This document shows positions 1 to 59,968 of a stretch of 64,000 bases of DNA, in pieces. The number at the start of each line of letters is the position of its first letter. Within the stretch, counting starts at the first letter, position 1. The translations under genes were made by a program, and so were the position numbers. Under the pieces are notes generated by a model. That model saw nothing but the letters and a program-made list of their open reading frames with translations, ran no database searches and had not been told where the DNA came from. Where the stretch lies: the IMG/VR virus record IMGVR_UViG_3300044608_001664; one strand, given 5' to 3'. The DNA comes from an uncultured virus (IMG/VR IMGVR_UViG_3300044608_001664) (lineage: Duplodnaviria; Heunggongvirae; Uroviricota; Caudoviricetes; Schitoviridae).

Positions 1-293
1 CCCAAATCGAACTGTTCTTTCCCAAATCTCTGGAAGCCAAGAAAGATGCACTCAAGATGGCCCGAGTTGTGGAGGAATACCACATTGTTGGGGAAATCGA
101 AAATCAATGGGTAGACCTACGGGCAGCATATGCCCAAACCGTCAACAAATCCCAAGGGAGCACGTATGATCGTGTGTTTGTCGATCTGGACGATATTGCC
201 AAATGCAATAGCGGTGACCAGATTGCTCGCATGTTATATGTGGGTGTATCTCGTGCTCGTGAACAGGTATATCTCACAGGAGATTTAGTGTGA
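1..293 (+). CDS. C-terminal part of SF1 (Dda/RecD-like) DNA helicase, truncated by the window start
   Basis: Motifs AYAQTVNKSQGSTYDRVFVD and LYVGVSRA (SF1 motifs V/VI); lies upstream of the polymerase as in N4-like phages. Confidence 0.9.
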   Translation, partial: QIELFFPKSLEAKKDALKMARVVEEYHIVGEIENQWVDLRAAYAQTVNKSQGSTYDRVFVDLDDIAKCNSGDQIARMLYVGVSRAREQVYLTGDLV

Positions 294-490
294 AAACAGT
301 CTATGTCTGTACCGCTTGTGGTAGTGCCAATGTGCTGACCGACGCATTTGTTCATGCAAATGATCCGGATGATGTCCGGACTTACGACGATCAGTATTGC
401 GAGCACTGCGAATGCTCTTGCAAAACTCAATCCGTTGAAGTCTCTGATGACTTCGATATTTACAACGATATCTACCAAGAAAGTACCTAG
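290..490 (+). CDS. small putative zinc-ribbon protein
   Basis: CxxC...CxxC pairs; GTG start overlapping the helicase stop. Confidence 0.6.
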   Translation: MKTVYVCTACGSANVLTDAFVHANDPDDVRTYDDQYCEHCECSCKTQSVEVSDDFDIYNDIYQEST

Positions 491-493
491 CCC

Positions 494-1012
494 ATGAGTG
501 AAGTGCTACAGCACGATCCTCGCACCAAAAAGCAGATCAAGGACATGCTGTTTGCCTTCCTCTACGAGCCGGTCGAGAAGCAGTTTAAACAACGGTTGGA
601 TGCCCTGATCATACGTAACACCTTGATCACCGGGGTATCCCACCAATCTTTCACCTACAAGGGGAACCTGTACAACATGGACATTTCCCCTGTTCCTCGC
701 AAGTTGACTCGGTTGGTTCCTCAACTTGTTCCTGATATGGAGGCATATCTGGCTGACCTGAAACAACTCAATGATAAGGAAATTCCCTATGTCGTTGGTT
801 TCATCAATCAAGTCTTGAATGCCTCCAACGATCTGCATGATTACCTTCGGGTATTCCCTCAATCGCTTCATCAGCCTATTCAAAAGCTGATTGATTCATA
901 CCCTTGCCGAACCAAAAGGCTGACTGATGAAGAGGTACGAGAAATGCAGACACGAAACCAACAATATATTGACCTTGTAAAACAACGCATGGTCACCAAC
1001 CTGCTTATTTAA
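494..1012 (+). CDS. conserved N4-like hypothetical protein between helicase and polymerase
   Basis: 172-aa ORF in tight operon; synteny. Confidence 0.7.
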   Translation: MSEVLQHDPRTKKQIKDMLFAFLYEPVEKQFKQRLDALIIRNTLITGVSHQSFTYKGNLYNMDISPVPRKLTRLVPQLVPDMEAYLADLKQLNDKEIPYVVGFINQVLNASNDLHDYLRVFPQSLHQPIQKLIDSYPCRTKRLTDEEVREMQTRNQQYIDLVKQRMVTNLLI

Positions 1013-1023
1013 GGAAATCCGGT

Positions 1024-3759
1024 ATGCGCCACATTTTGTTTCAGGCATCAGATCGTCACCCGTTGGCGCTATTGGTCAAAAGCACTGCCTTCAAGCAACA
1101 GGAGTTGGAATCCAACTACGTGGCTCACCTAATGAGCCTCGGCATTTCGAGGGCAGACATCATTGCCTTCACCCTGGATTACGACGAGAACGGCAAGGCT
1201 TCGGTCAAGTACATGAAAGAGTACCTGGCCAAGCTATTGCCTGCCCTTCAGTCGTTGGGCACCACTACCCTGTATGTCACCGATGGTGCCTACTTCAAGG
1301 TGCTCACCAAGGAAGGCAAAGCCGAACCCCATTTTGGCTATGTCCTTCCCTGCAAGATCGAGGGTTTCGAGCACATGAATATCGTGCTTGGGTTGAATTA
1401 CCAGCAGTTGATTTACAACCCGGATCTGCAAACCAAGCTGACCCTGAGTATCAATACCCTGGCTTCACACCTGCAAGGGAGCTACCAGGCACTCGGGGCC
1501 AACATCATCCACTCGTCAAGCTACCCAGAAACGCCACAATCCACCGCTGCTGCGCTCAGGGGCATCCTGGAATATCCAAGCCTCACCTGTGACATTGAAG
1601 CCTTCTCGCTGCGTTTTGAGGAGGCTGGCATTGGCACCATTGCCTTTGCCTGGGATGAACACAACGGGATTGCTTTTACGTGTGACTACCAGCGCATCTG
1701 GAATATCGATGGCACCCTCACCGATACCACGGGGGTAATGGATATCGACATTGCTGCATACCATGGCTTCTATGCCAGCAATCCTGAAATCCGTGGCTTG
1801 CTCAAGGAGTTCTTCACCCACTATCAAGGAAAGTTGATCTGGCACAACGCTGCCTATGATGTGAAAGTAATCATCTACACCCTCTGGATGAAGGATGCCC
1901 TGGATACCCAAGGATTGCTGGAAGGACTAGAAATCATGTCCCGGCATATCGATGACACCAAGATCATCGCTTACCTGGCTACCAACTCCACGGCAGGTAA
2001 TGTGCTGGGCTTGAAACCCCTGGCTCATGAGTTCGCTGGCAACTGGGCAGTCGAGGAAATCACCGATATCCGGAAGATCCCGCTCAAGGAGCTGCTCCAG
2101 TACAACTTGGTGGATACCCTTTCCACTTGGTACGTGCACAAAAAGTACTACCCGGTCATGGTTCAGGACAACCAGGAGGGGCTGTATCACTCCCTGATGC
2201 TACCTAGCCTGAAGCTGATCATCCAGATCGAGCTGACCGGGATGCCAATGAATCGGGAGCGTATTCAGTTTGCCAAGCAGAAGTTGGAGTCCCTTTCCAA
2301 CGGGTATTTGAACAAGCTGAAGAACAGCCCAGTCATCAAGATGTTCAATCTGCTACTCCGTAAATCGGAATGGGAAAAGGACTTCGAAGGACGCAAGGCG
2401 AAAGCCAAGAATCCCGACAAGATCATGCCCAAGCAGATCGAAGCCTTCGATATCAAGGAGTTCAACCCGAACAGTGGGCCACAGCTTCAACGACTGCTCT
2501 ACGAGATGATGGGCTTGCCTGTCATTGACCTGACCGACACCAAGCAACCTGCCACCGGGAAAGACACACTGGAGAAGCTACGAAACCATACCCAGGAAGC
2601 TACCTATCTGGAAATCATTGATTGCCTGATTGGCTTCACCGGGGTGGACAAGATCCTGACTGCCTTCATCCCCAACTTTGAGAAAGCGTTGGATAAGGGT
2701 GATGGCTGTGTTTGGCTTCACGGTAGTTTCAACCTGGGTGGCACGGTATCCGGACGCCTCAGTTCCAGTAAGCCCAACCTGCAACAGATTCCTGCCAACT
2801 CCGAATTCGGCAAGCTAATCAAAGAGTGCTTCATGGCTCCGGAAGGCTGGCTATTCAGTGGTGCTGACTTCAATTCTCTGGAGGATTACATCAGTGCACT
2901 TACGACAAAAGATCCGAACAAGCTGGATGTTTATATCAAGGGCTTTGATGGTCATTGCCTTCGGGCTGCTTACTACTTCCGGGATCTTTTACCTGATATT
3001 GATGTTAGCGATCCCAAGTCGGTAAACAGCATCAAGAAGGTAGCTCCGGAACTGCGACAGGAATCGAAGACTCCGACCTTTGCACTAACCTACCAAGGCA
3101 CCTACCACACGTTGATGGCCAACCTGGGATGGGAAGAAGCCAAGGCCAAGGCGATTGAGACTGCGTATCACGAACTGTACAAAGTATCGGACCAGTACGT
3201 GCAATCCCGGCTGATGCAAGCCAGCAAGGATGGATACGTGGAGGTAGCCTTCGGGCTACGTGTGCGAACTCCCCTGCTGAAGCAAGTCATCTTCAATGGG
3301 GCCAAGATGCCCTATGAGGCTGCTGCTGAAGGACGTACTGCAGGAAACGCACTGGGCCAGTCCTATGGCTTGCTGAACAACCGGGCAGCAGTGGAGTTCA
3401 TGCAGAAGGTCTGGAATTCCCCCTACCGCTATGACATCAAGCCAGTAGCTCTGATTCACGATGCCATCTACCTACTGATCCGGGACCGGATTGATGTGGT
3501 GGAGTGGGCCAACCGTGAATTAATCAAGTCAATGCAATGGCAAGAGCTTCCTGAAATCCAGCATGACACCGTGAAACTTGGTGCTGCACTGGATATCTTC
3601 TGGCCAGATTGGGCACACCCCATCACGTTGCCGAATAACGCCGATCAAAACACGATCAAGAAAATCTGCAATGAAGCCAAGGAAGCCCATGAAAGTAGCC
3701 AAACTAAGCACAGGGAAAGTTGTGCAGATGTTGAAAGGTCCACAATGTGTGCTGTTTGA
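1024..3759 (+). CDS. family A DNA polymerase with 3'-5' exonuclease (N4 gp39-like)
   Basis: Exo motifs DIE and HNAAYD; pol motifs TVSGRLSS..PNLQQ, DFNSLE, RQESKTPTFALTY, IHDA. Confidence 0.95.
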   Translation: MRHILFQASDRHPLALLVKSTAFKQQELESNYVAHLMSLGISRADIIAFTLDYDENGKASVKYMKEYLAKLLPALQSLGTTTLYVTDGAYFKVLTKEGKAEPHFGYVLPCKIEGFEHMNIVLGLNYQQLIYNPDLQTKLTLSINTLASHLQGSYQALGANIIHSSSYPETPQSTAAALRGILEYPSLTCDIEAFSLRFEEAGIGTIAFAWDEHNGIAFTCDYQRIWNIDGTLTDTTGVMDIDIAAYHGFYASNPEIRGLLKEFFTHYQGKLIWHNAAYDVKVIIYTLWMKDALDTQGLLEGLEIMSRHIDDTKIIAYLATNSTAGNVLGLKPLAHEFAGNWAVEEITDIRKIPLKELLQYNLVDTLSTWYVHKKYYPVMVQDNQEGLYHSLMLPSLKLIIQIELTGMPMNRERIQFAKQKLESLSNGYLNKLKNSPVIKMFNLLLRKSEWEKDFEGRKAKAKNPDKIMPKQIEAFDIKEFNPNSGPQLQRLLYEMMGLPVIDLTDTKQPATGKDTLEKLRNHTQEATYLEIIDCLIGFTGVDKILTAFIPNFEKALDKGDGCVWLHGSFNLGGTVSGRLSSSKPNLQQIPANSEFGKLIKECFMAPEGWLFSGADFNSLEDYISALTTKDPNKLDVYIKGFDGHCLRAAYYFRDLLPDIDVSDPKSVNSIKKVAPELRQESKTPTFALTYQGTYHTLMANLGWEEAKAKAIETAYHELYKVSDQYVQSRLMQASKDGYVEVAFGLRVRTPLLKQVIFNGAKMPYEAAAEGRTAGNALGQSYGLLNNRAAVEFMQKVWNSPYRYDIKPVALIHDAIYLLIRDRIDVVEWANRELIKSMQWQELPEIQHDTVKLGAALDIFWPDWAHPITLPNNADQNTIKKICNEAKEAHESSQTKHRESCADVERSTMCAV

Positions 3760-4027: not shown

Positions 4028-4432
4028 ATGGAACAGGAACTTCCCCTAGGAACCTCTCGGCGTAACGAGATCATCGAGCGTCTGCAAAGTCGCTGCGAGA
4101 TTGTTGATACCGGGTTCCTACTTAATGACTCCCCTTCTCCCTGTCATCTGTGGACCGGACCTACTTCCGGTAATGGTCGGGGAGGCAACTATGGCCGCAT
4201 GAGCCTAAACGGGCAGACCGTGGCTACCCATATCGTTGCCTACACCCACTACTACGGTTACGTGCCGAGCAAGAAGCAAATCGACCACCTCTGCAATCAG
4301 CGGCTTTGCTGCAATCCAGCTCACCTGGAATTGACCTCCCATCTGACAAATCAACGGCGTCGTGCGCAACGAGCCAAAGAAACCTCTTCTTCAATGAAGC
4401 CTTCCCTGTGGGGGCTTTCCTCACATTCATAG
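4028..4432 (+). CDS. HNH (His-Me finger) endonuclease
   Basis: CHLWTG...YGRM...THIVAY...IDHLCNQRLCCNPAHL. Confidence 0.85.
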   Translation: MEQELPLGTSRRNEIIERLQSRCEIVDTGFLLNDSPSPCHLWTGPTSGNGRGGNYGRMSLNGQTVATHIVAYTHYYGYVPSKKQIDHLCNQRLCCNPAHLELTSHLTNQRRRAQRAKETSSSMKPSLWGLSSHS

Positions 4433-8684: not shown

Positions 8685-9005
8685 ATGCCTTACGTTGCTC
8701 AAATGCTCCATAGTTTTTCCACCAAGTTAGAAACCCCTCCTATTCCTACCAAGCGTAATACTGAGAAAGCCCGTGCTGCCAGGCAGGAAAAAGTACGAAA
8801 GTGGTTCTTGGATAACATGAAGGCAGAGTCTTGGGATACCACCACTATTGCTTCAAAAAGAGGACAAGAGAACTCTTCTTGTCTTCCTTTGTTATACGAC
8901 TTGGAAAAAGAGGGGTTTCTAACAAGAGCAGGTTTTGGTCCTCGTAAAGGTAGAGGCCGATGCCCTGTTATTTGGAAACTCACTAATCCACCTCCCTCTT
9001 CGTAG
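8685..9005 (+). CDS. putative winged-helix DNA-binding protein
   Basis: GGAGG RBS; pattern TTTIASKRG...LYDLEKEGFLTR...GRGR.PVIWKLT resembles wHTH. Confidence 0.6.
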   Translation: MPYVAQMLHSFSTKLETPPIPTKRNTEKARAARQEKVRKWFLDNMKAESWDTTTIASKRGQENSSCLPLLYDLEKEGFLTRAGFGPRKGRGRCPVIWKLTNPPPSS

Positions 9006-9028
9006 GGAGTTTTATTTTGGAGGGTGAA

Positions 9029-9244
9029 ATGATCTTCCCTACTCAAGTCAACGGAATTCCTTGTAAGTGTCATGTTGATTTTTACTCTCCTACTGAACCA
9101 GAAAAGTTCCACTTCACGGTGTTGGGTATTAATGGACATGAAGCCAAGTGGCTCCAGGCAAAAGTAACCAGAGATGATCGAGATCGTCTTATCGAAGAAT
9201 TCAAGCTAGAGGCTTTAGCGATCAAATATGGAAAGGAAGTTTAA
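9029..9244 (+). CDS. hypothetical phage protein
   Basis: GGAGG RBS, ATG at 9029. Confidence 0.6.
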   Translation: MIFPTQVNGIPCKCHVDFYSPTEPEKFHFTVLGINGHEAKWLQAKVTRDDRDRLIEEFKLEALAIKYGKEV

Positions 9245-9246
9245 AC

Positions 9247-9678
9247 ATGACCATCAACGAAATTGCACAGCGGATTTCCAAAGACTACTGGAAGCGTGAT
9301 CAATGGAACATTGAGTACTTCGATGTAGTCGGGTATTCCAATGCTCTAGTCGCAGAACTGGCGAAGCAGGGGCCGGTTGCCGAAGTGCATGCGGCACACC
9401 TGAGAAAAGCCGAGAATGGCGAGGCATGGTGCCGTGAAGTGCTGTTGTACTCAGGGAATAATCCGGGTGATTTTCTCGATGGGAAAAATTACCGCGTAAA
9501 GCTCTACACAGCACCCATCCCGCCAGTAGTACCGGAAGGCTGGAAGCTGGTGCCGATTGAACCGACAACGGAAATGATTAACGCTGGAATGCGAGTAGGA
9601 GCCTATGGGGGCTACTCGGAACGTGATTGCTATACAACCATGCTCGCTGCAGCACCCACCCCGAAGGAGGAATCATGA
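9247..9678 (+). CDS. modular accessory protein of temperate-phage type (Ea/DUF551-like)
   Basis: LYTAP...VPEGWKLVPIEPTTEMINAG...MLAAAP module. Confidence 0.7.
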   Translation: MTINEIAQRISKDYWKRDQWNIEYFDVVGYSNALVAELAKQGPVAEVHAAHLRKAENGEAWCREVLLYSGNNPGDFLDGKNYRVKLYTAPIPPVVPEGWKLVPIEPTTEMINAGMRVGAYGGYSERDCYTTMLAAAPTPKEES

Positions 9679-10250
9679 GCGACCGTTTCGGAATGCCGTT
9701 GGTTGATGTTCGTACCAACAAGGAATTGATTGCGGAAATCACCGCCCTCAAGCAGCAACTTGAGGAAGAACGTTTGCGTCTAGCGGCTTGTGGTGTAGCT
9801 GCGCTCGGCTATTTCGACGGATGTAAAGATGAGTACCGTTCGGCCAGCCTTGAAGACACGCTGAAGCTGTATGCCGAGAACCAACAACTCAAGCAGCAAC
9901 TATCCAAGTACGAGGCGGCAGGGGTGAATCTGAATGCTCGGGTTGCTGAGATTGCTGTACTCAAGCAGCAACTTGAGGAAGTGCGTAACTGGTCAGCCAC
10001 TTTAGCCTGCGCAAATATCCCCGCAGTAATGGAATATTGTCAGCAGTTAGAGCAGCAGAACGCCGAATTGCGGAAGGATGCGGAGCGGTATCGCTGGCTT
10101 AAACAAGAACACTTCGTTATCAACCCCGTTGGACAAGTTGTATGGAAACGGAACTCAGAACGCAAGTCATCTGACTGGGTAAATCTAGTCGACGGGAATG
10201 ATCTTGATAACCACATCGACGCGGCAATCGCCAGCGCGGAGGGGAAGTAA
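9675..10250 (+). CDS. Ead/Ea22-like coiled-coil accessory protein
   Basis: GGAGG RBS, ATGA overlap; LKQQL repeats; LRKDAERYRWL and LDNHIDAAI modules. Confidence 0.7.
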   Translation: MSDRFGMPLVDVRTNKELIAEITALKQQLEEERLRLAACGVAALGYFDGCKDEYRSASLEDTLKLYAENQQLKQQLSKYEAAGVNLNARVAEIAVLKQQLEEVRNWSATLACANIPAVMEYCQQLEQQNAELRKDAERYRWLKQEHFVINPVGQVVWKRNSERKSSDWVNLVDGNDLDNHIDAAIASAEGK

Positions 10251-10445
10251 ATGAGTAAGGATCACGGCTATAAAAATGTAGCTGGACAGCAGGCATTCAC
10301 TTTTGACGAATCACTGGCTATGGCTCGCCAAGTATTCGATGCCTACGGGGCAACTGGAGCAAGCATCAGCGGAATGAGCGGAAACATGATATGCGATCTA
10401 GTAAACCTAGCAGCAATCCGAGCCGAGGAGTCACGAAATGAATGA
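10251..10445 (+). CDS. hypothetical protein
   Basis: Abuts neighbours in an operon. Confidence 0.55.
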   Translation: MSKDHGYKNVAGQQAFTFDESLAMARQVFDAYGATGASISGMSGNMICDLVNLAAIRAEESRNE

Positions 10446-10857
10446 CCTAGTAGCACAACTGCGCGAAGCTGCCAGTGAGTCCGAAACCCCATTCATGTCG
10501 CTTGAGGCAAAAGCCGCCGACGCTATCGAAGCATTGCAAGCGGAGGTTGAGAATGTTCGGAGAGCCAACCTAGATTGCATGGATCACTTCAATGCGGCAA
10601 TGCAAGACCTTGCAGCACGCGATCTGGTGATTAAGCAGATGCAGTCTGCAATCGAAGGAATGTTCGGCCCTACTAGCCAGTTGAGCGATGATCGTTTTGA
10701 CAAACTCAGCGCAGTCAATGGGCTACAACCATCCACCGAAGCCCTCGACGCTTATGTGGTTAAGGAAATAGATGAAAGGGTTAATTCTCTCCCACTTGAT
10801 CCCGCGATCAAGAACCGCATTACTACAATGATCCGGCATACACAGGAAGGAAAATGA
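10438..10857 (+). CDS. hypothetical protein, temperate-phage accessory type
   Basis: MNDLVAQLRE...KAADAIEALQAE module; GAGGAG RBS. Confidence 0.65.
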   Translation: MNDLVAQLREAASESETPFMSLEAKAADAIEALQAEVENVRRANLDCMDHFNAAMQDLAARDLVIKQMQSAIEGMFGPTSQLSDDRFDKLSAVNGLQPSTEALDAYVVKEIDERVNSLPLDPAIKNRITTMIRHTQEGK

Positions 10858-11096
10858 AACAAGAAACTCCCCCCATCGAACGAACTAAGATGTTCTGGGC
10901 CAGTAATGATGATTCTTGGCACACCACCGAAACTGTTTGTGCGGTTACCGAGTTATCCTTAAGCACGCTGATGAATTGGCGTGCTCAAGGCACTGGACCT
11001 GTGTTCTTCAAATCCGGTAAGCTCGTCTTCTACCGAAAGAAGGACATCCTCACTTGGTTGAATTCGTTCCAACCATCTCAGTCTCTAGCCGCGTGA
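10854..11096 (+). CDS. xis: excisionase / AlpA-like HTH protein
   Basis: SLSTLMNWRAQGTGPVFFKSGKLVFYRKKDILTWL (MerR-like Xis HTH); convergent with the integrase. Confidence 0.85.
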   Translation: MKQETPPIERTKMFWASNDDSWHTTETVCAVTELSLSTLMNWRAQGTGPVFFKSGKLVFYRKKDILTWLNSFQPSQSLAA

Positions 11097-12189
11097 TGAC
11101 TGCACGTAACGTAGGGATCTCGATCTGGATGTAATCATCAGTCACATCTTCCCGTGCTCGATGATTCATCAGTCGTTTGATCGTATACTTGGAAGGGGCT
11201 GGCTCAAGAGCATTCAAGTGTGACACGAAGGTTCGCCTCAAGTCATGCACCGTAATATCCTCACCAAGTTTGGCTAAGGATTTACGCACATCAACGATGT
11301 GTCCTACTTCCGATCTTCTGGATTGGAAAACATACTCTGAGCCGTCCAGGAGAGGTTTAATCCGCTCCCAAAGGTATGGTCCCATCGGGACAATATGCTC
11401 ATCAGAATTCTTGGTTTCGCCTTCCATTAAGACAACACATCGATCCTTGATCTGTGTTTGTTTGAGGGTAAGAACTTCGTTCTTACGCAAACCAAGAAAG
11501 AGGAGCATCAAGACCGCCCCCTTCATCCATCCATCCAACAACTCGGCTTGTTCAATCCAGGCAGCTACACCGAACTTCTTGATGAAGCCTTTACGCTTCT
11601 TCTCAGGGTTCCATAGATGCTTGCGAGAGAGTACATGCACTGGATTGGGGATGACATCTCCAAAGTTCAGTGCAGCTCGAACAAAGCGTAGTGCATTGTT
11701 GGCGCACACCGGACCACGATCCTTGGTGATCTTGCCATGCAAGGACACCACAAACTCCTCAGTGACCTGTTTGATAGGCTTGGTATGCCAAGACTCCAAG
11801 ACAGTATCCCGAAGCCATTCGTAGCCTTCAGAGGTCTTCTGCTTGATCTGCTTACCTTGTCCTGATGTACGGGTGATCAAGTAGATATCCAGAACGTCTT
11901 TCAGCGTCTTGGATAGCTTCCTGGTAGGAAGCTCTCCCTTGGACATTCCCAAGAGAATCTGGCGTGCATCCTCTCGTGCAGCATCAGGGAAAATCACGCC
12001 ATGTCTGCCTAGCTTACGACGAATCTTGCCGGTATCCGTTCGGCCTTCCACGAAGTAGGTCTTGACTCCCTTGGGAGTGACATAAAGACCAAAGCCAGGA
12101 AGCACTGTATCGTAGTGCAATTCCTGGCTTTTCTCGGGAGGTGGAAGGGGCAACCCTTCGACCGCTGCTTTGGTCAGTTTGAGCTTCAT
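11050..12189 (-). CDS. int: tyrosine integrase with N-terminal arm-binding domain
   Basis: N-term KLTKAAVE...YDTVLPGFGLYVTPKGVKTY; catalytic R (GLRKNE), K (TKN), HDLRR, H (MNH), Y (DDY) all present. Confidence 0.95.
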   Translation of the reverse strand: MKLKLTKAAVEGLPLPPPEKSQELHYDTVLPGFGLYVTPKGVKTYFVEGRTDTGKIRRKLGRHGVIFPDAAREDARQILLGMSKGELPTRKLSKTLKDVLDIYLITRTSGQGKQIKQKTSEGYEWLRDTVLESWHTKPIKQVTEEFVVSLHGKITKDRGPVCANNALRFVRAALNFGDVIPNPVHVLSRKHLWNPEKKRKGFIKKFGVAAWIEQAELLDGWMKGAVLMLLFLGLRKNEVLTLKQTQIKDRCVVLMEGETKNSDEHIVPMGPYLWERIKPLLDGSEYVFQSRRSEVGHIVDVRKSLAKLGEDITVHDLRRTFVSHLNALEPAPSKYTIKRLMNHRAREDVTDDYIQIEIPTLRAVITRLETEMVGTNSTK

Positions 12190-12199
12190 GATTTTCTCC

Positions 12200-12480
12200 T
12201 GGCTATAAATTGGCTATATGTTGCTTAACCAGACCTGGAGAGAGTCATGTAAGTCATTGAATAATTGGTCGGGGCGGTGGGATTCGAACTCACGACCCTC
12301 TGCTCCCAAATCTGATAGGCGTGCGTACACTACGTTACCGCACGCTACTTGGCAAGGAATTGGTATCCTGATGAGTACCTCAGAATACCTTTCGTTACCG
12401 CAGAGTTGGCTATAAATTGGCTATATTTTCTATGCCCTGAGCATTTATAGCCAAAGCCAGAATAACTCACTGACTATAAA
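12200..12480. repeat. integrase arm-type sites: TGGCTATAAA-like repeats flanking the attP core
   Basis: TGGCTATAAATTGGCTATAT at 12200-12219 and 12407-12426; inverted copy TTTATAGCCA at 12444-12453; TGACTATAAA at 12471-12480. Confidence 0.8.
12266..12310 (-). other. attP: attP core: 3' half of a tRNA-Pro(TGG), anticodon loop to CCA
   Basis: Minus strand reads TTTGGGAGCAGAGGGTCGTGAGTTCGAATCCCACCGCCCCGACCA; no 5' half present; adjacent to int. Confidence 0.88.
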
Positions 12481-12515
12481 AGGAAAAAGGGAACGGTTGC
12501 CCAGACCGTTCCCTT
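12478..12515 (-). terminator. intrinsic terminator on minus strand, before attP
   Basis: AAGGGAACGGT-7nt-ACCGTTCCCTT followed by T-rich run on minus strand. Confidence 0.8.
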
Positions 12516-12593
12516 CCCCAATATCCTTTCCTAAACAAGCCAAGAGGAGTGGCAAGGATTGCTTAGGAAAGGGTACTACACCACAACACCACG
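12480..12593 (-). ncRNA. candidate small RNA (about 115 nt)
   Basis: Own promoter-like sequence, 14-bp stem with G-U only on minus strand, terminator, no ATG-started ORF. Confidence 0.5.
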
Positions 12594-12599
12594 GAACAA

Positions 12600-12628
12600 A
12601 GTGTACACCCTCTGAATTGGGTATACAA
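12600..12628 (-). promoter_or_regulatory. sigma70-type promoter
   Basis: TTGTAT-N17-TACACT on minus strand. Confidence 0.6.
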
Positions 12629-12637
12629 GTCCTCAGA

Positions 12638-13078
12638 TCACTTCAGTAGAGATACTTCTACCTGCCTACGCAGAACCAATCCAGGGAGCTTCTTACCCCC
12701 TCCCCAGACCCATTTCTGGAGTTCATCTGCAGCCTCTTCCCAGTCACCAGCATTCACCTTACGTCGTAAGGTAGAAATCTTGTATCGACTGATTCCTAGG
12801 TTGTAACAGAAGTCTCCAATTGCAGCCTGCTTGCTCTCATCCATGTACAAAATAGGAGAGAGATTACAGGCTGCTTGGAGAAACACAGCAGCATCCTGCT
12901 GTGCCATGGATTCTGCTACTGGCTTACTGATCTGATCCCCTGGTTTGATCTTACGACCATCAGGATAAGCAGTAGATCCGTATCCGATTGTCCAAACACC
13001 AGCAGGGCACAGGTATGCCTTTAAACGTAGTCCTTCGAAACGCCTGATCAGACGCATCAGGATCTCAGAGAACATCAA
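12638..13078 (-). CDS. endolysin, GH24 lysozyme
   Basis: FEGLRLKAYLCPAGVWTIGYG, FCYNLG, LPGLVLRR. Confidence 0.92.
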   Translation of the reverse strand: MMFSEILMRLIRRFEGLRLKAYLCPAGVWTIGYGSTAYPDGRKIKPGDQISKPVAESMAQQDAAVFLQAACNLSPILYMDESKQAAIGDFCYNLGISRYKISTLRRKVNAGDWEEAADELQKWVWGGGKKLPGLVLRRQVEVSLLK

Positions 13079-13094
13079 CCATCTCCGTTGGGGA

Positions 13095-13577
13095 TCACTT
13101 TCCGAATCCTTTTTTCAGGCTTCGATCCACAAACCAGAAAGTAATGATGGATGCAGCAATTGCCTTTTCATCTGGTCCCCAGAGTTTGAGAATCGCAGTA
13201 GTAGTAGAAGCGCCCCCATCAAGCAAGACTACAAACTGAGAAACCAAGGCTGCTGTGTAGAGGACGATGACCCACCAAAAGGTGATCAATGGACGCATGA
13301 GGCTATTGATCGCATCAACGAACTTGATCCCTGTCTGTACTGCTTGAGCTTTGGTAGCCTCAATGAGTGCAGAAATCTCTGCCAAACCAATCTCAGCAGT
13401 GGATTTTGCGTTGATCTGATCAATAGCCGATTTGCTTCGTAGCTCGTCAGCCTGGAGTTGTTTATCGAACATCCGAGCTTCGTGGTCACGCTCGTTCTTT
13501 CGGTCAACCCATTTCAGGATTTCGGGGGCTAGACGAAATAGCCCCCCAAATAACGTTCCAACTAGTGTTTCAATCAT
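13095..13577 (-). CDS. holin-like membrane protein (3TM/GTA type)
   Basis: Hydrophobic segments; NSLMRPLITF and IITFWFVDRS; in lysis cassette. Confidence 0.65.
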   Translation of the reverse strand: MIETLVGTLFGGLFRLAPEILKWVDRKNERDHEARMFDKQLQADELRSKSAIDQINAKSTAEIGLAEISALIEATKAQAVQTGIKFVDAINSLMRPLITFWWVIVLYTAALVSQFVVLLDGGASTTTAILKLWGPDEKAIAASIITFWFVDRSLKKGFGK

Positions 13578-13591
13578 AAAAGCCTCTCGGT

Positions 13592-13714
13592 TTAATAATC
13601 AGTTCGCCTGCGTTTATGAATGCTGGCTTGATGGTGTCTGGTATGCACGGTGTCCCGTGCACCCCATATAGCAATCCCAACGCATAGAGCGATGATCAGC
13701 AGGTCTGCAAACAT
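13592..13714 (-). CDS. 40-aa single-TM peptide in lysis cassette (not in ORF track)
   Basis: Manual translation MFADLLIIALCVGIAIWGARDTVHTRHHQASIHKRRRTDY; fills the gap between the two holin-like genes. Confidence 0.5.
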   Translation of the reverse strand: MFADLLIIALCVGIAIWGARDTVHTRHHQASIHKRRRTDY

Positions 13715-13716
13715 GA

Positions 13717-14025
13717 TTATCCCTTTCCTTCCATGGCTCGCTGGAAGATCCGTTCTAACCCAGATGTACCCAGACTAGCCAATCCTGCAGCAACGCCGAT
13801 TTGTCCAACCATGGATAAATTAGGTTCCCAGATGAGCGCAATACCTGCAGCCATCGCTAGACCACCAGTGCTCAAAGCACGCCCTAGCAAAAGACGGAAA
13901 GTAATCCGCTCGTTACTAACCATGAGTTGACCAAGACCAATCGCAATGCCAACGATTGAAAAAATGAGCGACCCTGCTAGTTGATCCTGCCAGTGTCGCG
14001 CAATATCACTGAGTTTATCGATCAT
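13717..14025 (-). CDS. putative holin
   Basis: Three hydrophobic segments; AAAGGA RBS; heads lysis cassette. Confidence 0.7.
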   Translation of the reverse strand: MIDKLSDIARHWQDQLAGSLIFSIVGIAIGLGQLMVSNERITFRLLLGRALSTGGLAMAAGIALIWEPNLSMVGQIGVAAGLASLGTSGLERIFQRAMEGKG

Positions 14026-14146
14026 GTAATGGTTCCTTTTCACTGGGCATTTTGTTGATGTGATTCAAGTTACCAATCAGCTCAGTGGTAGGTTCTCGAT
14101 GATTGAGAAACCAAACATGAAGTGCTCGGAATACTCCTCCCATTGC

Positions 14147-14785
14147 TTATGCAATTCGTTTGAATGTTGCGGTATTGGAAACTACCGTACTACCTACAGT
14201 AGTAGGCCATGCAGGTGCATCACCTGCAGAGGTGCCAGCAACCGATACGATGTACTCTTCTGTCGAACCTGCTGTGGGTTTAACGACATCCCCAAGGGCA
14301 TATACCGTATTGATAGCAAAAGTGCTTGGGGTATAGAACTTGGGAATCGTGGTAAAGGTGATTCCACCATCCACCGTATTACCTGCTAAGGTCTGGTTCC
14401 AGACAGGCTCATTGGTTGCAGCAGCAGTCTTACCTTCATTGGTGCCTGGGGTAATCACAGTCACCACGTAGATTTTCCCATTGGCTCCAGCTACTGAAGC
14501 ATCTAGGGCAGCTACGCGATCCCCTAGAGCAAGAGGAGCATTAGGGGTACGTGCCCCATAGTTATAGATATCTGCGGAAGTACCTGAGACAGCCCAAGCA
14601 CCATTATTCACACTCCCGTTATGAGATAACGTAGCCTTGGCAAGAAGCTCACCAAGATTCAAAGGAGTATTGGTATCGGCAAGAATGGTGGCATCTGCCA
14701 CCCCTGCTTTACCTGGGAAATCACAGGTGAATGTCTGGGTAACAGTCCGAGTAAACGTAACTCTACGTGTGCCTTTGGTTGCCAT
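14147..14785 (-). CDS. putative virion protein with CBM5/12-like repeats
   Basis: Thr/Ala-rich; two repeats LALGDRV..IYVV..GKT..EPVW and YALGDVV..YIV..GTS..PAW. Confidence 0.6.
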   Translation of the reverse strand: MATKGTRRVTFTRTVTQTFTCDFPGKAGVADATILADTNTPLNLGELLAKATLSHNGSVNNGAWAVSGTSADIYNYGARTPNAPLALGDRVAALDASVAGANGKIYVVTVITPGTNEGKTAAATNEPVWNQTLAGNTVDGGITFTTIPKFYTPSTFAINTVYALGDVVKPTAGSTEEYIVSVAGTSAGDAPAWPTTVGSTVVSNTATFKRIA

Positions 14786-14850
14786 TATTTAATCAATCAG
14801 CGAAATAGTTGAGCCAGCCTGAATTATATAGAGGTTGAGCCATACAAATA

Positions 14851-14878
14851 AAAATAGCCCAGAAATCTGGGCTATTTT
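14851..14878 (-). terminator. intrinsic terminator, possibly bidirectional
   Basis: AAAATAGCCCAGA-AA-TCTGGGCTATTTT. Confidence 0.8.
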
Positions 14879-14893
14879 AAATCTGAGTCTGGA

Positions 14894-15181
14894 TTAATGT
14901 AACAAGTGGTGCACCAGGATAAACCCGACAGAACCTAATACAGGGAACATAAAGTCCATGGAACCATCCAGACTCTTGTAGACAAACTGGAATCCTTTAA
15001 ATGGATTCAGCCCACCTACATGCCCTCCATGAACAAGTTTCTTTTCATACTGGGCGTGCTCCCTTCCCAGGAAAAAGAAAGGACCACATAAAGCTGCTGC
15101 CCATTCATTCCCTGAAATTAGGAAAATAACCAGAGTAATCAACAGAGAGAACCCAAGATGTTCGAAATTGGTGCGATTCAT
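14894..15181 (-). CDS. small membrane protein
   Basis: Hydrophobic; FFLGREHAQYE motif. Confidence 0.65.
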   Translation of the reverse strand: MNRTNFEHLGFSLLITLVIFLISGNEWAAALCGPFFFLGREHAQYEKKLVHGGHVGGLNPFKGFQFVYKSLDGSMDFMFPVLGSVGFILVHHLLH

Positions 15182-20727: not shown

Positions 20728-21564
20728 ATGACTATTCAAGCCAAGATTATTGAAGACAGTATCAGCCATGCTGGTAAGCGAATCACAACTTTTCAGTTGC
20801 TTTACCCGAGATTCATCCATGCTGAATTACTCACCCACAGGGTATTCAGTCGAAATGCGAGTTCCTCTCGCGCTATCCCTGTATCGAAAATGCTCGCCAT
20901 GGTGAGGGATGATCCTGCCATGCCAATTCACTGGGGCAAGAATCAACCGGGAATGCAAGCCAAGGAAGAACTACTGCTAGGCGACAAGATGCACGCCGAG
21001 AGGCTGTGGAAAATGGCTGCTATTAAGGCATCTCAGATGGCTGAAGACATGATGAAGCTGGGCCTACACAAGCAGGTTGCGAACCGCATCCTGGAGCCGT
21101 TCCAGCACATCTCCGTAGTACTTACAGCCACCGATTTCTCCAACTGGTTTGAGTTGCGTGCTCACCCGGATGCACAGCCTGAGATCCAGGCACTGGCTGT
21201 TGCCATGCGAGAAGTAATGGAAAAGTCTTCACCCGTTCTTTTAAATCGTGGTGAATGGCACCTTCCTTATGTTACTCAGGAAGAACGTAATGACGGATTC
21301 TTCAAAGCCAATGAAGATAATGCCGAGTTACTCCGTAAAGTCAGTGCTGCCCGGTGCTGTCGAGTTTCTTATTTAACCCATCAGGGTAGAATACCGTCTA
21401 TTAATGATGATTTAAATCTTTGTGAAAAGCTCGTAGGAGCGCGTCCATTACACGCGTCGCCTTTCGAGCACGTTGCTACTCCACTGGAAAATCCAAATCA
21501 ATGGAGTGGGAATTTTCAAGGGTGGTTTCAATACCGTAAGGAAATAGAAGCAAAATTCAAATGA
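20728..21564 (+). CDS. thyX: FAD-dependent thymidylate synthase
   Basis: ELLTHRVFSRNASSSRAIP, HKQVANRILEPF, HASPFEH. Confidence 0.9.
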   Translation: MTIQAKIIEDSISHAGKRITTFQLLYPRFIHAELLTHRVFSRNASSSRAIPVSKMLAMVRDDPAMPIHWGKNQPGMQAKEELLLGDKMHAERLWKMAAIKASQMAEDMMKLGLHKQVANRILEPFQHISVVLTATDFSNWFELRAHPDAQPEIQALAVAMREVMEKSSPVLLNRGEWHLPYVTQEERNDGFFKANEDNAELLRKVSAARCCRVSYLTHQGRIPSINDDLNLCEKLVGARPLHASPFEHVATPLENPNQWSGNFQGWFQYRKEIEAKFK

Positions 21565-22274
21565 GAAAAGCATTCATCTATAAAGTCACACACATCGATT
21601 CTGGTCGGGTATATATCGGGCAGACGCGAGACAAAAAGGGCATCAACAACCGCTGGAGTGTGCATACATCATGTGCACGCCGAAATGTCTATGACACGTA
21701 TTTCCATAATGCAATTCGAAAATACGGGGAGTCTGCTTTTGCTGTGGAGCTTTTAGATGAATGCACGGTTGATACGGTTAATACTTTGGAAAAGAAATAC
21801 ATAGCTGAGTATCAGTCCAACGATAAGCAGCATGGTTTCAATATGAGCGAAGGAGGGGATGGTGGCCAGAACACCCTTTCTCCTGAAGTCAGAAAAAAGA
21901 TTTCCGACGCGAAAAAGGGAAAGCCTACAGGGGTTGTGTACACCCCAGAAGTACGCGAAAAAATTGCAGCATCTAAGCGGGGAAAACCGAGAAGCGAAGA
22001 AACCATTAAGAAGATGAAAGAGAATCGTAAAGTAGCTGCCCTTTCTGATTCATGGAAAACATCCATCTCAGTAGGACTCAAGATGTCTACAAAATTCAGC
22101 CTCTCAAAACAACAAGCTAACGAAATCGTAGCCAAACTACCCAGTCACTCTGATTCCAGTTTATCTGTGGAATACAAGGTCAGTCGTGCAACGATATGGA
22201 AAATCCGAAAAGGACTATTTCCTCTGGCAGCAAACTACACTGGAAATGATGCACACCTTTACCAGTTCAAATAA
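21561..22274 (+). mobile_element. free-standing GIY-YIG homing endonuclease with NUMOD3-like repeats
   Basis: FIYKVT...VYIGQT, R, E, GFN; repeated SPEVRKKIS-type motifs. Confidence 0.88.
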
Positions 22275-28925: not shown

Positions 28926-29660
28926 ATGAGCCTCCTCGCAAACCTCGCTTCCGATTCCTCCATTGCCGATGAGAAAGATTCTCTGGGTGGTAATTCCGTC
29001 CTCAACTCTGCAGCCTATCTGCTGAACATCTCGCTGGCTTACCTGTCCAAAGCAGCCAGTGGTGCTCTGGCACTGAACGTCGTCACCAAGACGGAAGATG
29101 GCCGTGAACTGCGTCAACAATTCTGGATGACCTCTGGCACGGCCAAGGGCTGCAAGAACTACTACGAGAAGGACGGTGAAAAGCATTACCTGCCGGGCTT
29201 CACACATGCCAATGCTCTGTGCCTCCTGACCGTTGGCAAGGAAATCTCCCAACTGGAAACCGAATCCAAGGTCATCAACCTGTGGTCGTCTGAAGCCAAG
29301 GCTGAAGTACCGACCAAGGTGGACATGCTGACCGATCTGCTGAACCAGCAAATCTACGCTGGCGTGATCAAGCAGACCGTGGACAAGACCAAGAAGAACG
29401 ATGCCGGTGAATACGTTGCCACGGGTGAAACCCGTGAAGAAAACGAGATCGACAAGTTCTTCCGTGCCAAGGACAAGATGACCACTGCCGAGATCCGTGC
29501 ACAAGCTGCAGAAGCTGCCTTCTTCGCCTCCTGGGAACAGAAGTGGACCGGCAAGGTCAAGGATCGTGCCAAGGGCGCTGCAGCCGGTCTGCCGGGTGTT
29601 CCGAAGCTGGGTGAAGCCCCGAAGGGTACTGCCAAGCCGACCACCAGCCTGTTCGGCTAA
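28926..29660 (+). CDS. ssb: single-stranded DNA-binding protein (N4 gp45-like)
   Basis: Synteny; YLPGF, ETREENEIDKFF, C-terminal SLFG tail. Confidence 0.85.
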   Translation: MSLLANLASDSSIADEKDSLGGNSVLNSAAYLLNISLAYLSKAASGALALNVVTKTEDGRELRQQFWMTSGTAKGCKNYYEKDGEKHYLPGFTHANALCLLTVGKEISQLETESKVINLWSSEAKAEVPTKVDMLTDLLNQQIYAGVIKQTVDKTKKNDAGEYVATGETREENEIDKFFRAKDKMTTAEIRAQAAEAAFFASWEQKWTGKVKDRAKGAAAGLPGVPKLGEAPKGTAKPTTSLFG

Positions 29661-29812: not shown

Positions 29813-29886
29813 GCGGGATTGGCTCATTGGTTGAGTTCCAGCCTTCCAAGCTGGCTAAAGGAGTTCGATTCTCCTATTCCGCTCCA
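29813..29886 (+). tRNA. tRNA-Gly(TCC)
   Basis: Acceptor GCGGGAT/ATTCCGC, D arm GCTC/GAGT, anticodon arm CCAGC-CTTCCAA-GCTGG, T arm AGGAG-TTCGATT-CTCCT, T-CCA end. Confidence 0.93.
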
Positions 29887-30337: not shown

Positions 30338-30636
30338 GCGAGCAGTCTACCCCCACTCCGGAAGTACCCAGCGATCTGTTGGCTGTCAACGATCTGGATC
30401 ACTTCATTGTTTTGTTGACCGGCTGGCACAACCGACAAGTGGCTACTGTTGAGCATCTTCGGGATGCACCGACAGGAATCACCGTGATTGTTGGTGAGGG
30501 TGAAGAAGCCAAGGAACAGAAGCTGGAAGGGGAATTCCTGGCAGGCTTCCAACTGGGTATTGGCCTGGCATTGAATTATCTTGGCAAGATGCCTTTCATG
30601 GCCGAGTACGCCGATGTCCCTCCAGCAGTCCACTAA
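30334..30636 (+). CDS. conserved N4-like hypothetical protein
   Basis: GGAGG RBS, ATGA overlap. Confidence 0.7.
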   Translation: MSEQSTPTPEVPSDLLAVNDLDHFIVLLTGWHNRQVATVEHLRDAPTGITVIVGEGEEAKEQKLEGEFLAGFQLGIGLALNYLGKMPFMAEYADVPPAVH

Positions 30637-31177
30637 ACCGGGCATTCAAGAGGAATGGATGCCCATACCTGATTTTGTTGGGTACGAGGCATCCACTCTT
30701 GGAAGGGTGCGTTCCTATCGAAGCATTAATGGTAAAGGTGGATTACGCCTGATACCACGGCTTCTCAAGCTAATGGACAGCCCCAAGAAGGAATACTTGC
30801 GGGTAGGATTGGTAGATGGATTAGGGAAAGTAAGGCATATCCCGGTTCACACCCTGGTTCTGCTAACTTTTGTTGGGCCACGCCCTTCAAAAGACCATGA
30901 TTGCTGCCATCAAGATGGCAATGCACGGAATAACGTCGTATGGAATCTGCGATGGGATACCAGGCAAGCCAATGCAGATGATCGCGTCAATCATGGTACG
31001 CAGGTTAGAGGAAAAGATGCTCCTCTAGCGGTACTCACCGAAACCCAAGTTCGAGAGATCAAAGACGCGCTCCCTACCTGGAAAAAGGGGATGGGGCGTT
31101 TCTTTGCTCAAAAATTTGGCGTAGGGGATTCCGCAATTTCAGCCGTTAAACTTGGACTCACCTGGAGCCACATATGA
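30614..31177 (+). mobile_element. NUMOD4-HNH homing endonuclease
   Basis: EEWMPIPDFVGYEASTLGRVRS; VHTLVLLTFVG; HQDGNARNNVVWNLRW; start approximate. Confidence 0.88.
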
Positions 31178-32371: not shown

Positions 32372-32668
32372 TTATTTGACGCAAATGCTTTCTAGCGTAC
32401 CGCCTCCTGCCAGGAAGTCATCAACCCATTTGGGTTGACGGCCTCGACCTGTCCAGGTCTGGTCATTCCAACGATATTTGACAGGGACAGGAACCCCTAC
32501 TCTGGTTGAATCCTTTTCTGTAATCCCTAAGTCTTTCAACGTAAGCCCATTGGCTTTAATCAAAGCACGGATGGTTTCAATGGCCTCTGCTTTACGTTTA
32601 GCCATAAGGTGCTCGGCTTGCTTTTGTAACTGTGCAATTTCAGTCTGAATTTTCTGCAGATCGTCCAT
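32372..32668 (-). CDS. hns: H-NS family nucleoid-associated protein
   Basis: N-terminal coiled coil; VPVKYR...TWTGRGRQPKW DNA-binding motif; AGGAG RBS. Confidence 0.92.
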   Translation of the reverse strand: MDDLQKIQTEIAQLQKQAEHLMAKRKAEAIETIRALIKANGLTLKDLGITEKDSTRVGVPVPVKYRWNDQTWTGRGRQPKWVDDFLAGGGTLESICVK

Positions 32669-43131: not shown

Positions 43132-43160
43132 ATAAAAAGGCGGGGAATTACCCCGCCTTA
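43132..43160 (-). terminator. intrinsic terminator upstream of the vRNAP gene
   Basis: AAGGCGGGG-TAATT-CCCCGCCTT then T run on minus strand. Confidence 0.8.
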
Positions 43161-54715: not shown

Positions 54716-54776
54716 TCAAAATCCTTTGTGTGGATACAATACTACTTTCTTACTTCAACTTAATCAGGAGTTACCT

Positions 54777-55199
54777 ATGCGTATTAAATCTCTTCACCCG
54801 AATTTCAAGATGCCTGCCAAATCAACCAAGGGTGCCGGTGCTTTCGACATTTACATGCCGACATCCGGTATTGCCTTTGGTGACAGCCCCACTGTAGTAC
54901 CTCTCGGCTTTGCTGCTGAAGTCCCTGAAAATCATGTTGCCTTGATTTTCCCTCGCTCTGGTGTAGGTGCTAATCAAGGTGTTGAGTTGAATAATACCTG
55001 TGGTGTTATCGATTCAGATTTCCGTGGTGAATGGAAAGCGTTTATTCGAACTAAAAGTGGCAATCATTTTAGCTGGAATTCTGGCGATCGAGTTCTTCAG
55101 TTTTTAATTGTCCCGGTAGCTGATGTTGAATTGGAGTTGGTAGATTATTTAAATGAGACTGAGCGCGACTCTAGAGGCTTCGGTTCTTCCGGTAAATAA
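54777..55199 (+). CDS. dut: dUTPase (trimeric)
   Basis: AGAFD, PRSG, GVIDSDFRGE, RGFGSSG. Confidence 0.93.
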   Translation: MRIKSLHPNFKMPAKSTKGAGAFDIYMPTSGIAFGDSPTVVPLGFAAEVPENHVALIFPRSGVGANQGVELNNTCGVIDSDFRGEWKAFIRTKSGNHFSWNSGDRVLQFLIVPVADVELELVDYLNETERDSRGFGSSGK

Positions 55200-57547: not shown

Positions 57548-57705
57548 CAGTTCACCGAAGCCAGGATTACACGGACATCCGGAATCTCATCCCGAACCAA
57601 GGCCATCACCTGCTCATAGTTCTGCACCGATTCATGTTGAATGCGGAACAGCTTGGCCACGCCTTCCTTGTCCCGGACTGCTACTACGAAACGGGGCGTA
57701 CTCAT
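57547..57705 (-). CDS. 52-aa hypothetical protein (not in ORF track)
   Basis: Manual translation MSTPRFVVAVRDKEG...ILASVN; overlaps both neighbours (ATGA, TGATG). Confidence 0.65.
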   Translation of the reverse strand: MSTPRFVVAVRDKEGVAKLFRIQHESVQNYEQVMALVRDEIPDVRVILASVN

Positions 57706-58052
57706 TGCGCCCCCTCAATCACGAACCAGTCTTCAGCCAGCATATCGGCTTGCGAAGCCAGCCAACCCATCTGGATATCCCCTGCTGCCGTCTTCATCGT
57801 GATGCACGGGAGTACGTTGGCCGAACCATCAATGGTTTGGGCAGCATACTCAGCATTCCTCTTGCTCCAGAAGGCAGACGATGGGATTCGCTTACCACCC
57901 ATGGGTCCAGACAAAGCCAGCCACATACCCTGGCCATACCATCCTTCCCGAGCAACTCGGTGACCATCCTTCAAGGCATGGAGTGCCTCACCAAAATCCA
58001 AGCCAACAGAATTACATCCCGCTACCTGCACAGCATCATTCACTTGGTTCAT
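57702..58052 (-). CDS. DUF2829 / Tad2-like nucleotide-sponge protein
   Basis: FGEALHALKDGHRVAREGW...GWLASQADMLAEDW. Confidence 0.85.
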   Translation of the reverse strand: MNQVNDAVQVAGCNSVGLDFGEALHALKDGHRVAREGWYGQGMWLALSGPMGGKRIPSSAFWSKRNAEYAAQTIDGSANVLPCITMKTAAGDIQMGWLASQADMLAEDWFVIEGAQ

Positions 58053-58744: not shown

Positions 58745-59043
58745 TAATCATGGTTACTGTATCGGATGTATATAGTATCCAATTACTAATTTAAAGGGAA
58801 ATTAGTATTGATTAGTAAATCAAACCCGAAGGGTATTAGAAAAATATTGCCTAAAAAATAGGCGAAGGGTTATGGGGAAATTTATAAAATGGGTACGGTA
58901 GTAGCGAGATATTGACCCTCGCCTTTTGGCAATTTTTTCAAAATGGGTACGGTGTCAGGGTACTGACAGACCACGTTCAAAAACAAAACACCCCCCCCCC
59001 TCCTTAATAAAAAATATTTCTGGGGCACCCTACCCCTTATATG

Positions 59044-59058
59044 GCGCTCCGCGCATGG
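59044..59058 (+). promoter_or_regulatory. vRNAP hairpin promoter 1
   Basis: GCGC-TCC-GCGC-ATGG; template-strand GC-GGA-GC triloop hairpin. Confidence 0.85.
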
Positions 59059-59099
59059 TCTGGATATCCATCCCTTATTCAACCTATAGGAGTAACACC

Positions 59100-59315: not shown

Positions 59316-59458
59316 CAAGGAGGGACTCTTCGGAGTCCTTCCTATTCTTTTACACACAACAACTACACACATACACACTCCAGAGATAGTCCATCCAATA
59401 GGGATATCTCCATCTACTGAATCTCCTCCATTACTCCACAGTATTAACCTCAGTTGAA

Positions 59459-59791: not shown

Positions 59792-59801
59792 GGAGTTTCA
59801 A

Positions 59802-59960: not shown

Positions 59961-59968
59961 GAATCATC

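Follow-up and report, generated by a model that had tools for sequence, protein, structure and literature searches.

A putative tRNA-Pro(TGG)-targeting integration module in an N4-like phage genome from lake water

We analyzed a 64,000-nt stretch of DNA (hereafter the window; 49.3% G+C) from an uncultured virus (IMG/VR record IMGVR_UViG_3300044608_001664). Most likely, the window is the free form, i.e., the form carrying the phage attachment site (attP), of an N4-like lake-water phage that is temperate or at any rate capable of integration, and this phage can probably lie dormant in a betaproteobacterium. This reading centers on an integration module situated between the rightward rIIA-rIIB block and the leftward lysis block (lysozyme, holin), which consists of a tyrosine integrase gene (int), an excisionase-like gene (xis), a 45-nt attP core and arm-type sites on both sides of the core. 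The N-terminal arm domain of the P4-type integrase would attach to the TTGGCTATA arm sites, and the enzyme would then recombine the core with its identical counterpart, the 3' part of a tRNA-Pro(TGG) gene in a betaproteobacterium.

The N4-like character of the window, which an initial annotation made from the letters alone had claimed, was evident from its gene content. The open reading frame (ORF) at 32740–43089 on the minus strand (3449 aa) encodes the virion RNA polymerase (vRNAP), the hallmark of N4-like phages, and matched phrog_2206 over model positions 87–3403 of 3406 (E 0, 2084 bits). Also found were an N4-type single-stranded DNA-binding protein (SSB; 28926–29660, plus strand; phrog_743, E 2.3e-73) and a subunit of the N4-type RNAPII, the middle-gene polymerase (62568–63476, plus strand; phrog_2166, E 3.8e-103), which is the only RNAPII subunit held by the window. 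An N4-like major head protein (phrog_1357), the portal and the large terminase (phrog_1216 and phrog_38), the DNA polymerase (DNAP), rIIA and rIIB were likewise recognized with PHROGs, and the portal is 56–59% identical to those of N4-like isolates such as Escherichia phage Pollock (25 of 481 matching records). Judged from these genes, the window is a true N4-like phage genome (Schitoviridae). Because the contigs that carry its integrase reach 71,823 bp, the source is a phage-sized molecule, about 8 kb of which lie outside the window. All sequencing runs containing this stretch are labelled lake-water metagenomes (18 listed, six of them with at least half of the sampled words), and long error-free pieces among the Logan contigs confirmed the presence of the phage in each of the four lake-water runs compared. 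The nearest record, G001, has a 100% identical portal and no match to window positions 9000–15000.

Integrase, xis-like gene and attachment site

The int gene (11050–12189, minus strand) encodes a 379-aa integrase of the P4/DUF4102 type, which matched PF00589 with 46.8 bits (cut-off 27.1) and the PHROG family phrog_1 ("integrase") with an E value of 5e-37. The match of its N-terminal part to the arm-DNA-binding domain PF13356 (DUF4102) was borderline (25.6 bits, just below the cut-off of 27; E 1.4e-5); PF13356 appears in the precomputed annotation of 36 of the 42 homologue clusters with identities of at least 49%. In a MAFFT alignment, R235, K260, H315, R318 and H343 fell on the catalytic residues of lambda Int, which we take to be R212, K235, H308, R311 and H333. 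This alignment misplaced the tyrosine, and Y353 was assigned from an alignment with the XerC-like structure 4a8e, in which H315/R318 and H343 were matched and Y353 stood on the catalytic Tyr. The six residues do not vary among 13 homologues, down to 51% identity. By these alignments, the integrase carries the full catalytic R-K-H-R-H/W-Y set within its PF00589 domain.

In a large protein collection, the integrase belongs to a tight clade of the 42 clusters mentioned above, all of which are metagenome-derived, and the next matches, including the nearest homologues from bacteria or isolated phages, were at most 39% identical. Among isolated phages, no close homologue of the integrase was found; the 14 matching records were all at or below 30% identity and none was N4-like by name. 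A profile search of IMG/VR with 13 integrases returned 60 loci, of which only L001 was close (81%), the others having identities of at most 34% except for a 66-residue fragment at 39%. Five large contigs returned by this search were considered as N4-like relatives and rejected as other kinds of phage, as none of them (0/5) matched the vRNAP. Members of the clade reside on contigs of 70,183–75,231 bp from several sources, and the attP form is recurrent, identical or near-identical integrases being found on contigs of 70–75 kb, again from several sources.

The xis-like gene (10854–11096, plus strand) encodes an 80-aa protein with an excisionase-type winged helix, which matched PF12728 (HTH_17; 31.3 bits, cut-off 27) and phrog_66 ("excisionase and transcriptional regulator"; E 1.6e-6). 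It closes the rightward rIIA-rIIB operon, with an ATGA shared by its start and the stop of the ORF before it, and it converges on int with a 3' overlap of 47 nt. Given that it is an excisionase-family winged helix encoded beside int, the protein is a candidate directionality factor.

The attP core (12266–12310, tRNA sense on the minus strand) is identical at 45 of 45 positions to tRNA-Pro(TGG) genes from U33 of the anticodon loop through the terminal CCA, and the alignment becomes unrelated in the 5' half. The core is present once in the window. ARAGORN called no tRNA-Pro gene in the 64 kb, which means that the tRNA lacks its 5' half there. Covariance models of Rfam added nothing meaningful for 11900–12700, where the tRNA fragment gave a weak match to the tmRNA clan (8.3 bits). 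The exact 45-mer was found in 21 IMG/VR stretches, in seven of which it ends a complete tRNA-Pro(TGG) by ARAGORN, and in at least 121 genome stretches (one genome per species), where it matches complete tRNA-Pro genes. By a hand tally of titles, 108 of the latter are labelled betaproteobacterial: 34 of the Rhodocyclales type (Accumulibacter, Dechloromonas, Azonexus, Azospira, Propionivibrio and others), 24 Alcaligenaceae, 22 of the Neisseriales type, 13 of the Comamonadaceae or Sphaerotilaceae type and 15 unclassified Burkholderiales or betaproteobacteria. Six others are unspecific. The core thus predicts a betaproteobacterial host, at no finer resolution. The remaining seven stretches, all with a betaproteobacterial-type tRNA-Pro, come from metagenome-assembled genomes (MAGs) whose labels name other phyla (Acidobacteriota, Bacteroidota, Bryobacteraceae, Peribacteria, Silvanigrella and Rickettsiales), one of them being L067 (JBLNAI010000016.1), and these contigs were probably mis-binned.

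Repeats resembling arm-type sites surround the core. There are five copies of TTGGCTATA in the 64 kb (0.33 expected; none of 100 shuffles reached five), and four of them lie within 12210–12454, on both sides of the core and with one copy inverted. The sites proximal to int, between its start codon and the core, are the tandem units TGGCTATAAAT and TGGCTATAT at 12200–12222 (repeat family D1/D2). The distal sites (12406–12480) comprise a direct pair at 12407–12429, an inverted copy at 12443–12454 and a degenerate copy at 12470–12480; the longer unit TGGCTATAAATTGGCTATAT starts at 12200 and 12407, with its inverted copy at 12443. A second repeat pair of the distal arm, TAC..T.CGTTACCGCA (repeat family D3), starts at 12326 and 12386 (12326–12402). 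The motif CGGTA.C..A is kept in relatives, and the pair may serve as sites for an accessory protein or for Xis. On the far side of the distal arm, a strong terminator-like hairpin of 15 pairs followed by a T run (12483–12519, minus strand) stands after the lysozyme gene and closes the lysis operon; it would insulate attP and int from this leftward operon. The initial annotation had described an integrase with all catalytic residues, a convergent xis, a 45-bp tRNA-Pro 3' half and arm-type repeats on both sides of it, and had named the lack of a host tRNA match to the core as a ground for doubting the whole; these descriptions agree with our results, including the exact matches of the core in complete host tRNA-Pro genes.

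Given that the core extends as far as the terminal CCA, integration is predicted to rebuild an intact tRNA gene at the int-side junction. Since int would then be 77 nt downstream of the tRNA and co-directional with it, and no terminator-like site is predicted between core and int, int could be read from the tRNA promoter, and such read-through might keep Int present in a lysogen. Xis comes from the last gene of the rightward rIIA-rIIB block, a class of genes that phage RNAPII reads in N4, and would accordingly be synthesized only after the lytic programme has begun; excision would thereby be tied to induction. Antisense interference with int could arise in addition from the convergent 47-nt overlap.

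The same tRNA site appears to be used by other elements. In two contigs of about 38 kb, IMGVR_UViG_3300017650_000161 (L013/L017) and IMGVR_UViG_3300001199_000021 (L019/L010), the core is found near both ends and a full tRNA-Pro at one of them. These contigs have the appearance of unrelated prophages, with attL and attR at their boundaries, that use the same tRNA-Pro(TGG) site, and this site would then be a shared integration hot spot.

Conservation of the module and evidence for an integrated form

The module is found at the same place in three relatives, L001 (an IMG/VR contig of 30.6 kb with both int and vRNAP), L145 and L146 (a metagenome contig of 72,210 bp). Their integrases are 80–85% identical to that of the window and their DNAPs 84%, while rIIA and rIIB are just 49–60% identical. 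The agreement between the integrase and DNAP values argues that the integrase diverged with the phage backbone and was not captured recently. The ratio of nonsynonymous to synonymous substitution rates (dN/dS) of int against the three relatives is 0.07–0.13, with a dS of 1.1–1.6 (above 1 in all int pairs); that of xis, which is 79–88% conserved in L001, L145 and L146, is 0.05–0.21 over the three pairs among the window, L001 and L145. Thus, both int and xis are under strong purifying selection. The core is 100% unchanged in the window, L001, L145 and L146. In L001, all three arm copies share one change, from ATTTATAGCCAA to ATTTATACCGGA (GCCA to CCGG), and the L001 integrase differs most in its N-terminal part. 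Such a concerted change at separated sites is typical of protein-binding sites and not of neutral sequence, which suggests that the arm sites are bound by a protein. Relatives were found at 22 loci through the lysis-cassette protein, and among these loci int and core occurred only in two contigs of one metagenome; the other loci had no match to int, core or rIIB and are therefore uninformative on the insertion site.

L145 provides the one candidate for an integrated relative. At the start of its contig, 29 nt precede a complete tRNA-Pro(TGG) (30–106), behind which lies the int-side arm; the gene order after the CCA is int, xis, the rIIB homologue, rIIA, an HNH gene and DNAP, and int has the orientation of the tRNA and lies 77 nt downstream of it. 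This order, a whole tRNA and then int, agrees with the rebuilt tRNA predicted for the int-side junction. The 29-nt flank resembles the tRNA-Pro promoter flanks of bacterial contigs; together with the 5' half of the tRNA, it matches the tRNA-Pro regions of L067 (98%) and of L138, an Azonexaceae isolate (96%), each over 101 nt, and past the CCA L145 and the host contigs diverge. The L145 tRNA has a T in the D loop, which is the variant of Dechloromonas and Azonexus. We therefore consider it likely that L145 represents an integrated int-side junction with a rebuilt tRNA, and the host of this member was probably a relative of the Azonexaceae. The integrated relative that the initial annotation had suggested looking for was found in this one form; the junction is single and short and could be chimeric.

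Several observations weigh against a temperate phage and favor the strongest alternative, namely that the phage does not form lysogens in nature, that the L145 contig was chimerically assembled, and that the integrase is a passenger acquired recently or has a different role, e.g., multimer resolution. The only integrated junction lies at the end of a contig, with just 61 nt that are not of phage origin, and a chimeric join through the 45-nt repeat would produce the same picture. Two samples of 401 genomes each, one from the family of L138 and one from its order, contained no N4-like portal by a query that finds G001 at 100% identity as the positive control. The 42 integrase clusters are all on contigs of at most 78 kb, i.e., on phage-sized contigs, and no cluster falls within a large bacterial contig. 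An attL-type pattern search in IMG/VR gave no match, and a pattern of distal arm plus core retrieved only two attP contigs, both already found. When Logan contigs of four lake-water runs were compared with window positions 10000–14500, they broke at the core, with loose ends formed by mixed host tRNA-Pro genes and a word depth of 102–176 in the core bin vs. 0–24 in the adjoining bins; short pieces bridge both edges of attP, and nothing at this contig level linked attL or attR to the phage, a result that favors neither reading. No leftward sigma70-type promoter was predicted for int, although a consensus scan cannot prove its absence. Finally, no repressor of the CI, Cro or XRE type was recognized in 101 ORF scans of the window, which lacks about 8 kb of the genome, against Pfam and PHROGs, many ORFs having been compared with both. 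The only candidate regulator is a small winged-helix (MarR/HTH_24-like) protein encoded at 8685–9005 on the plus strand, which has no Pfam or PHROG match, an atlas feature score of 0.94 and TM scores of 0.54–0.63 to MarR_2/HTH_24 clusters. This protein is 54% identical in L146, was not found in L145 or the available part of L001, and has no homologue among 50,697 phage records.

We nevertheless consider an absence of lysogeny improbable. Purifying selection on int and xis persists among relatives with saturated synonymous sites, and an invariant, tRNA-identical core with co-varying arm sites would be unexpected for a passenger or a Xer-like resolvase. The parallel divergence of integrase and DNAP opposes a recent capture, and the match of the L145 flank to real tRNA-Pro promoter regions opposes a chimera.

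Still less probable, in our view, is that the block of int, xis and attachment site is a separate small integrative element, or a decayed remnant of a phage-borne tRNA, in a lytic phage. The window does tolerate insertions, as its many HNH and GIY-YIG mobile endonuclease genes indicate, and it does contain one real tRNA gene, for tRNA-Gly(TCC) (29813–29886, plus strand; ARAGORN), at the end of the replication block. A separate element, however, should be flanked by a duplicated attachment site, and the core is single in the window; moreover, three diverged relatives carry the block at the same position, with the rIIB-side genes on one side of it and the lysis genes on the other. A decaying pseudogene would not have stayed 100% identical to the host over 45 nt beside saturated synonymous sites. 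That the window is the attL or attR end of an integrated prophage, for which only the presence of a tRNA-derived sequence speaks, is refuted by the gene content of both flanks (DNAP, rIIA and rIIB to the left; lysozyme, holin, tail fibre and vRNAP to the right) and is further opposed by the missing tRNA 5' half and the phage-sized longest contig of the integrase, so that the assignment as attP in the initial annotation stands.

Transcription programme and start-up of a prophage

If the phage is temperate, its transcription programme raises the question of how a prophage would start. A hairpin motif, (G)CGC-TCC-GCG(C)ATGG, occurs three times on the plus strand of the early region (59045–59070, 59460–59485 and 60684–60709). 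N4 promoters have hairpins with a 3-nt loop consisting of a 5' G, a purine in the middle at -11 and a 3' A, according to the rules given for N4 (PMC4496689). The template-strand loop of the motifs, 5'-GGA-3', fits these rules, with weak fold z-scores of -0.6 to -1.6, and the motifs look like N4-type early promoters for vRNAP. In 58600–64000, one sigma70-like site was found vs. 8.9 +/- 3.7 expected. Given the putative N4-type hairpins and the scarcity of sigma70-like sites, the phage, like N4, probably relies on vRNAP for early transcription. For the later classes, N4 offers a guide: genes of the rIIA-rIIB class are middle genes read by the phage RNAPII, and SSB activates late transcription by the host RNA polymerase (RNAP) (PMC4496689).

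A strong, bidirectional terminator-like hairpin (9 pairs, 7 of them G-C) was noticed at 43137–43159, 48 nt upstream of the vRNAP start codon. With such a hairpin just upstream, the vRNAP gene may have its own, unrecognized promoter; no sigma70-type promoter was recognized between the hairpin and the gene, in a consensus scan that cannot prove absence.

The initial annotation had seen the main novelty in a start-up route that is independent of injected vRNAP. Its premise holds, with putative hairpin promoters present and sigma70-like sites few, but nothing in the window sequence reveals a substitute for the injected vRNAP in a prophage. Tentatively, and with more doubt than confidence, we propose that N4-like lysogeny could dispense with a classical repressor and be "off by default". 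The early hairpin promoters of a prophage would be readable only by vRNAP delivered with a virion; middle genes would need the early-encoded RNAPII; and late genes, including that of vRNAP, would need the middle-encoded SSB. These dependencies would lock an integrated copy in a closed loop, and induction would follow when host RNAP leaks into the vRNAP gene or another entry gene and sets off a self-reinforcing cascade. In this scheme, Int would be made constitutively from the promoter of the rebuilt tRNA-Pro and Xis only from the RNAPII-read middle operon. If true, the choice between lysis and lysogeny would be controlled by polymerase dependency and not by an operator and a repressor. In any case, early promoters of the N4 hairpin type would mean that a prophage needs a route independent of injected vRNAP, a question that is testable in principle.

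Related systems and accompanying genes

N4-like phages are favored for phage therapy partly through their assumed strictly lytic lifestyle. Retention of a working-looking integration module over long divergence renders this assumption unsafe for the N4-like family as a whole. The possibility, raised in the initial annotation, that integrase-bearing N4-like genomes had already been reported proved correct: Zheng et al. (mSystems, 2023; PMC10654107) described lysogeny hallmark genes in 54 N4-like genomes and, in addition, 40 integrated proviral regions, which were found mainly in Moraxella and in two cases in Enterococcus. They inferred a lysogenic strategy, with some subfamilies carrying an integrase consistently, and in the same paper stated a strictly lytic lifestyle for the N4 lineage as a whole (PMC10654107). 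Integrase-carrying N4-like phages are thus a known class, of which the phage analyzed here is a well-defined further case; its lineage may or may not be among the 54 genomes, with which it shares an N4-like backbone and an integrase. The main text of the survey contains no mention of attP, an attachment site, a repressor, induction or Betaproteobacteria (PMC10654107). Beyond that main text, the present analysis defines the exact attP and the bacterial attachment site (attB) in tRNA-Pro(TGG), from U33 to CCA, the arm sites, the likely host group and range (betaproteobacteria), selection on the module and a concrete layout for int and xis expression. In the limited collection of literature searched, no paper defined an N4-like attP in tRNA-Pro or treated the start-up of an N4-like prophage.

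The individual parts of the phage have counterparts in well-studied systems. Coliphage N4, the lytic archetype of the Schitoviridae, is strictly lytic and lacks int, xis and attP. It resembles the phage of the window in its giant vRNAP, two-subunit RNAPII, SSB, rIIA/rIIB, leftward late block and, putatively, early promoters with 3-nt-loop hairpins, as N4 is described in PMC4496689. The Burkholderia phages phiE125, phi1026b and PhiBP82.1 share the target, as their annotated attP is a tRNA-Pro(TGG) 3' end, and the core region shows 85.7% identity over 56 nt with the tRNA-Pro attP annotated in phiE125 and phi1026b. In contrast to the phage analyzed here, they are ordinary temperate phages of about 53–57 kb by annotation, and Burkholderia phages do not carry this integrase (0/14 integrase matches). 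The combination of PF13356 (a borderline match here) and PF00589, a target at a tRNA 3' end and a small HTH candidate directionality factor (AlpA- or Xis-type) beside int is shared with integrases of the P4 and CP4-57 type, a family that habitually targets tRNA 3' ends. Lambda differs in that its int and xis are co-oriented, whereas those of the window are convergent and overlap by 47 nt. Temperate T7-like phages, such as Pseudomonas phage LUZ100 and the integrase-bearing pelagiphages, offer a further parallel, being podoviruses with their own RNAP that were long deemed strictly lytic and some of which are reported to carry an integrase. Early genes of T7-like phages are read by host RNAP, so that a T7-like prophage has an obvious entry point, whereas an N4-like prophage is without the injected enzyme for its early promoters.

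The window also contains genes outside the integration module that deserve mention. Five genes of the homing-endonuclease type, four HNH and one GIY-YIG/NUMOD, are spread over the replication and early regions (4028–4432, 21561–22274, 30581–31177, 61341–61997 and 63490–63999), one of them immediately following the gene for the RNAPII subunit. A gene close behind that of vRNAP (32372–32668, minus strand) encodes a 98-aa H-NS-like protein with a PF00816 C-terminal domain (E 1e-10), which could be a silencer or a host-takeover factor. Its phage homologues are from betaproteobacterial phages (EBPR podovirus 1 and Ralstonia records), and none of the 15 matches listed, of 16 records, is an N4-like isolate by name. 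A protein with a Tad2-like anti-Thoeris domain (PF11195, E 1.5e-22) is encoded at the start of the late block (57702–58052, minus strand). Inside the leftward structural block, a dUTPase gene (54666–55199; PF00692, E 5e-23) lies on the plus strand and shares about 50 nt with the start of the portal gene.

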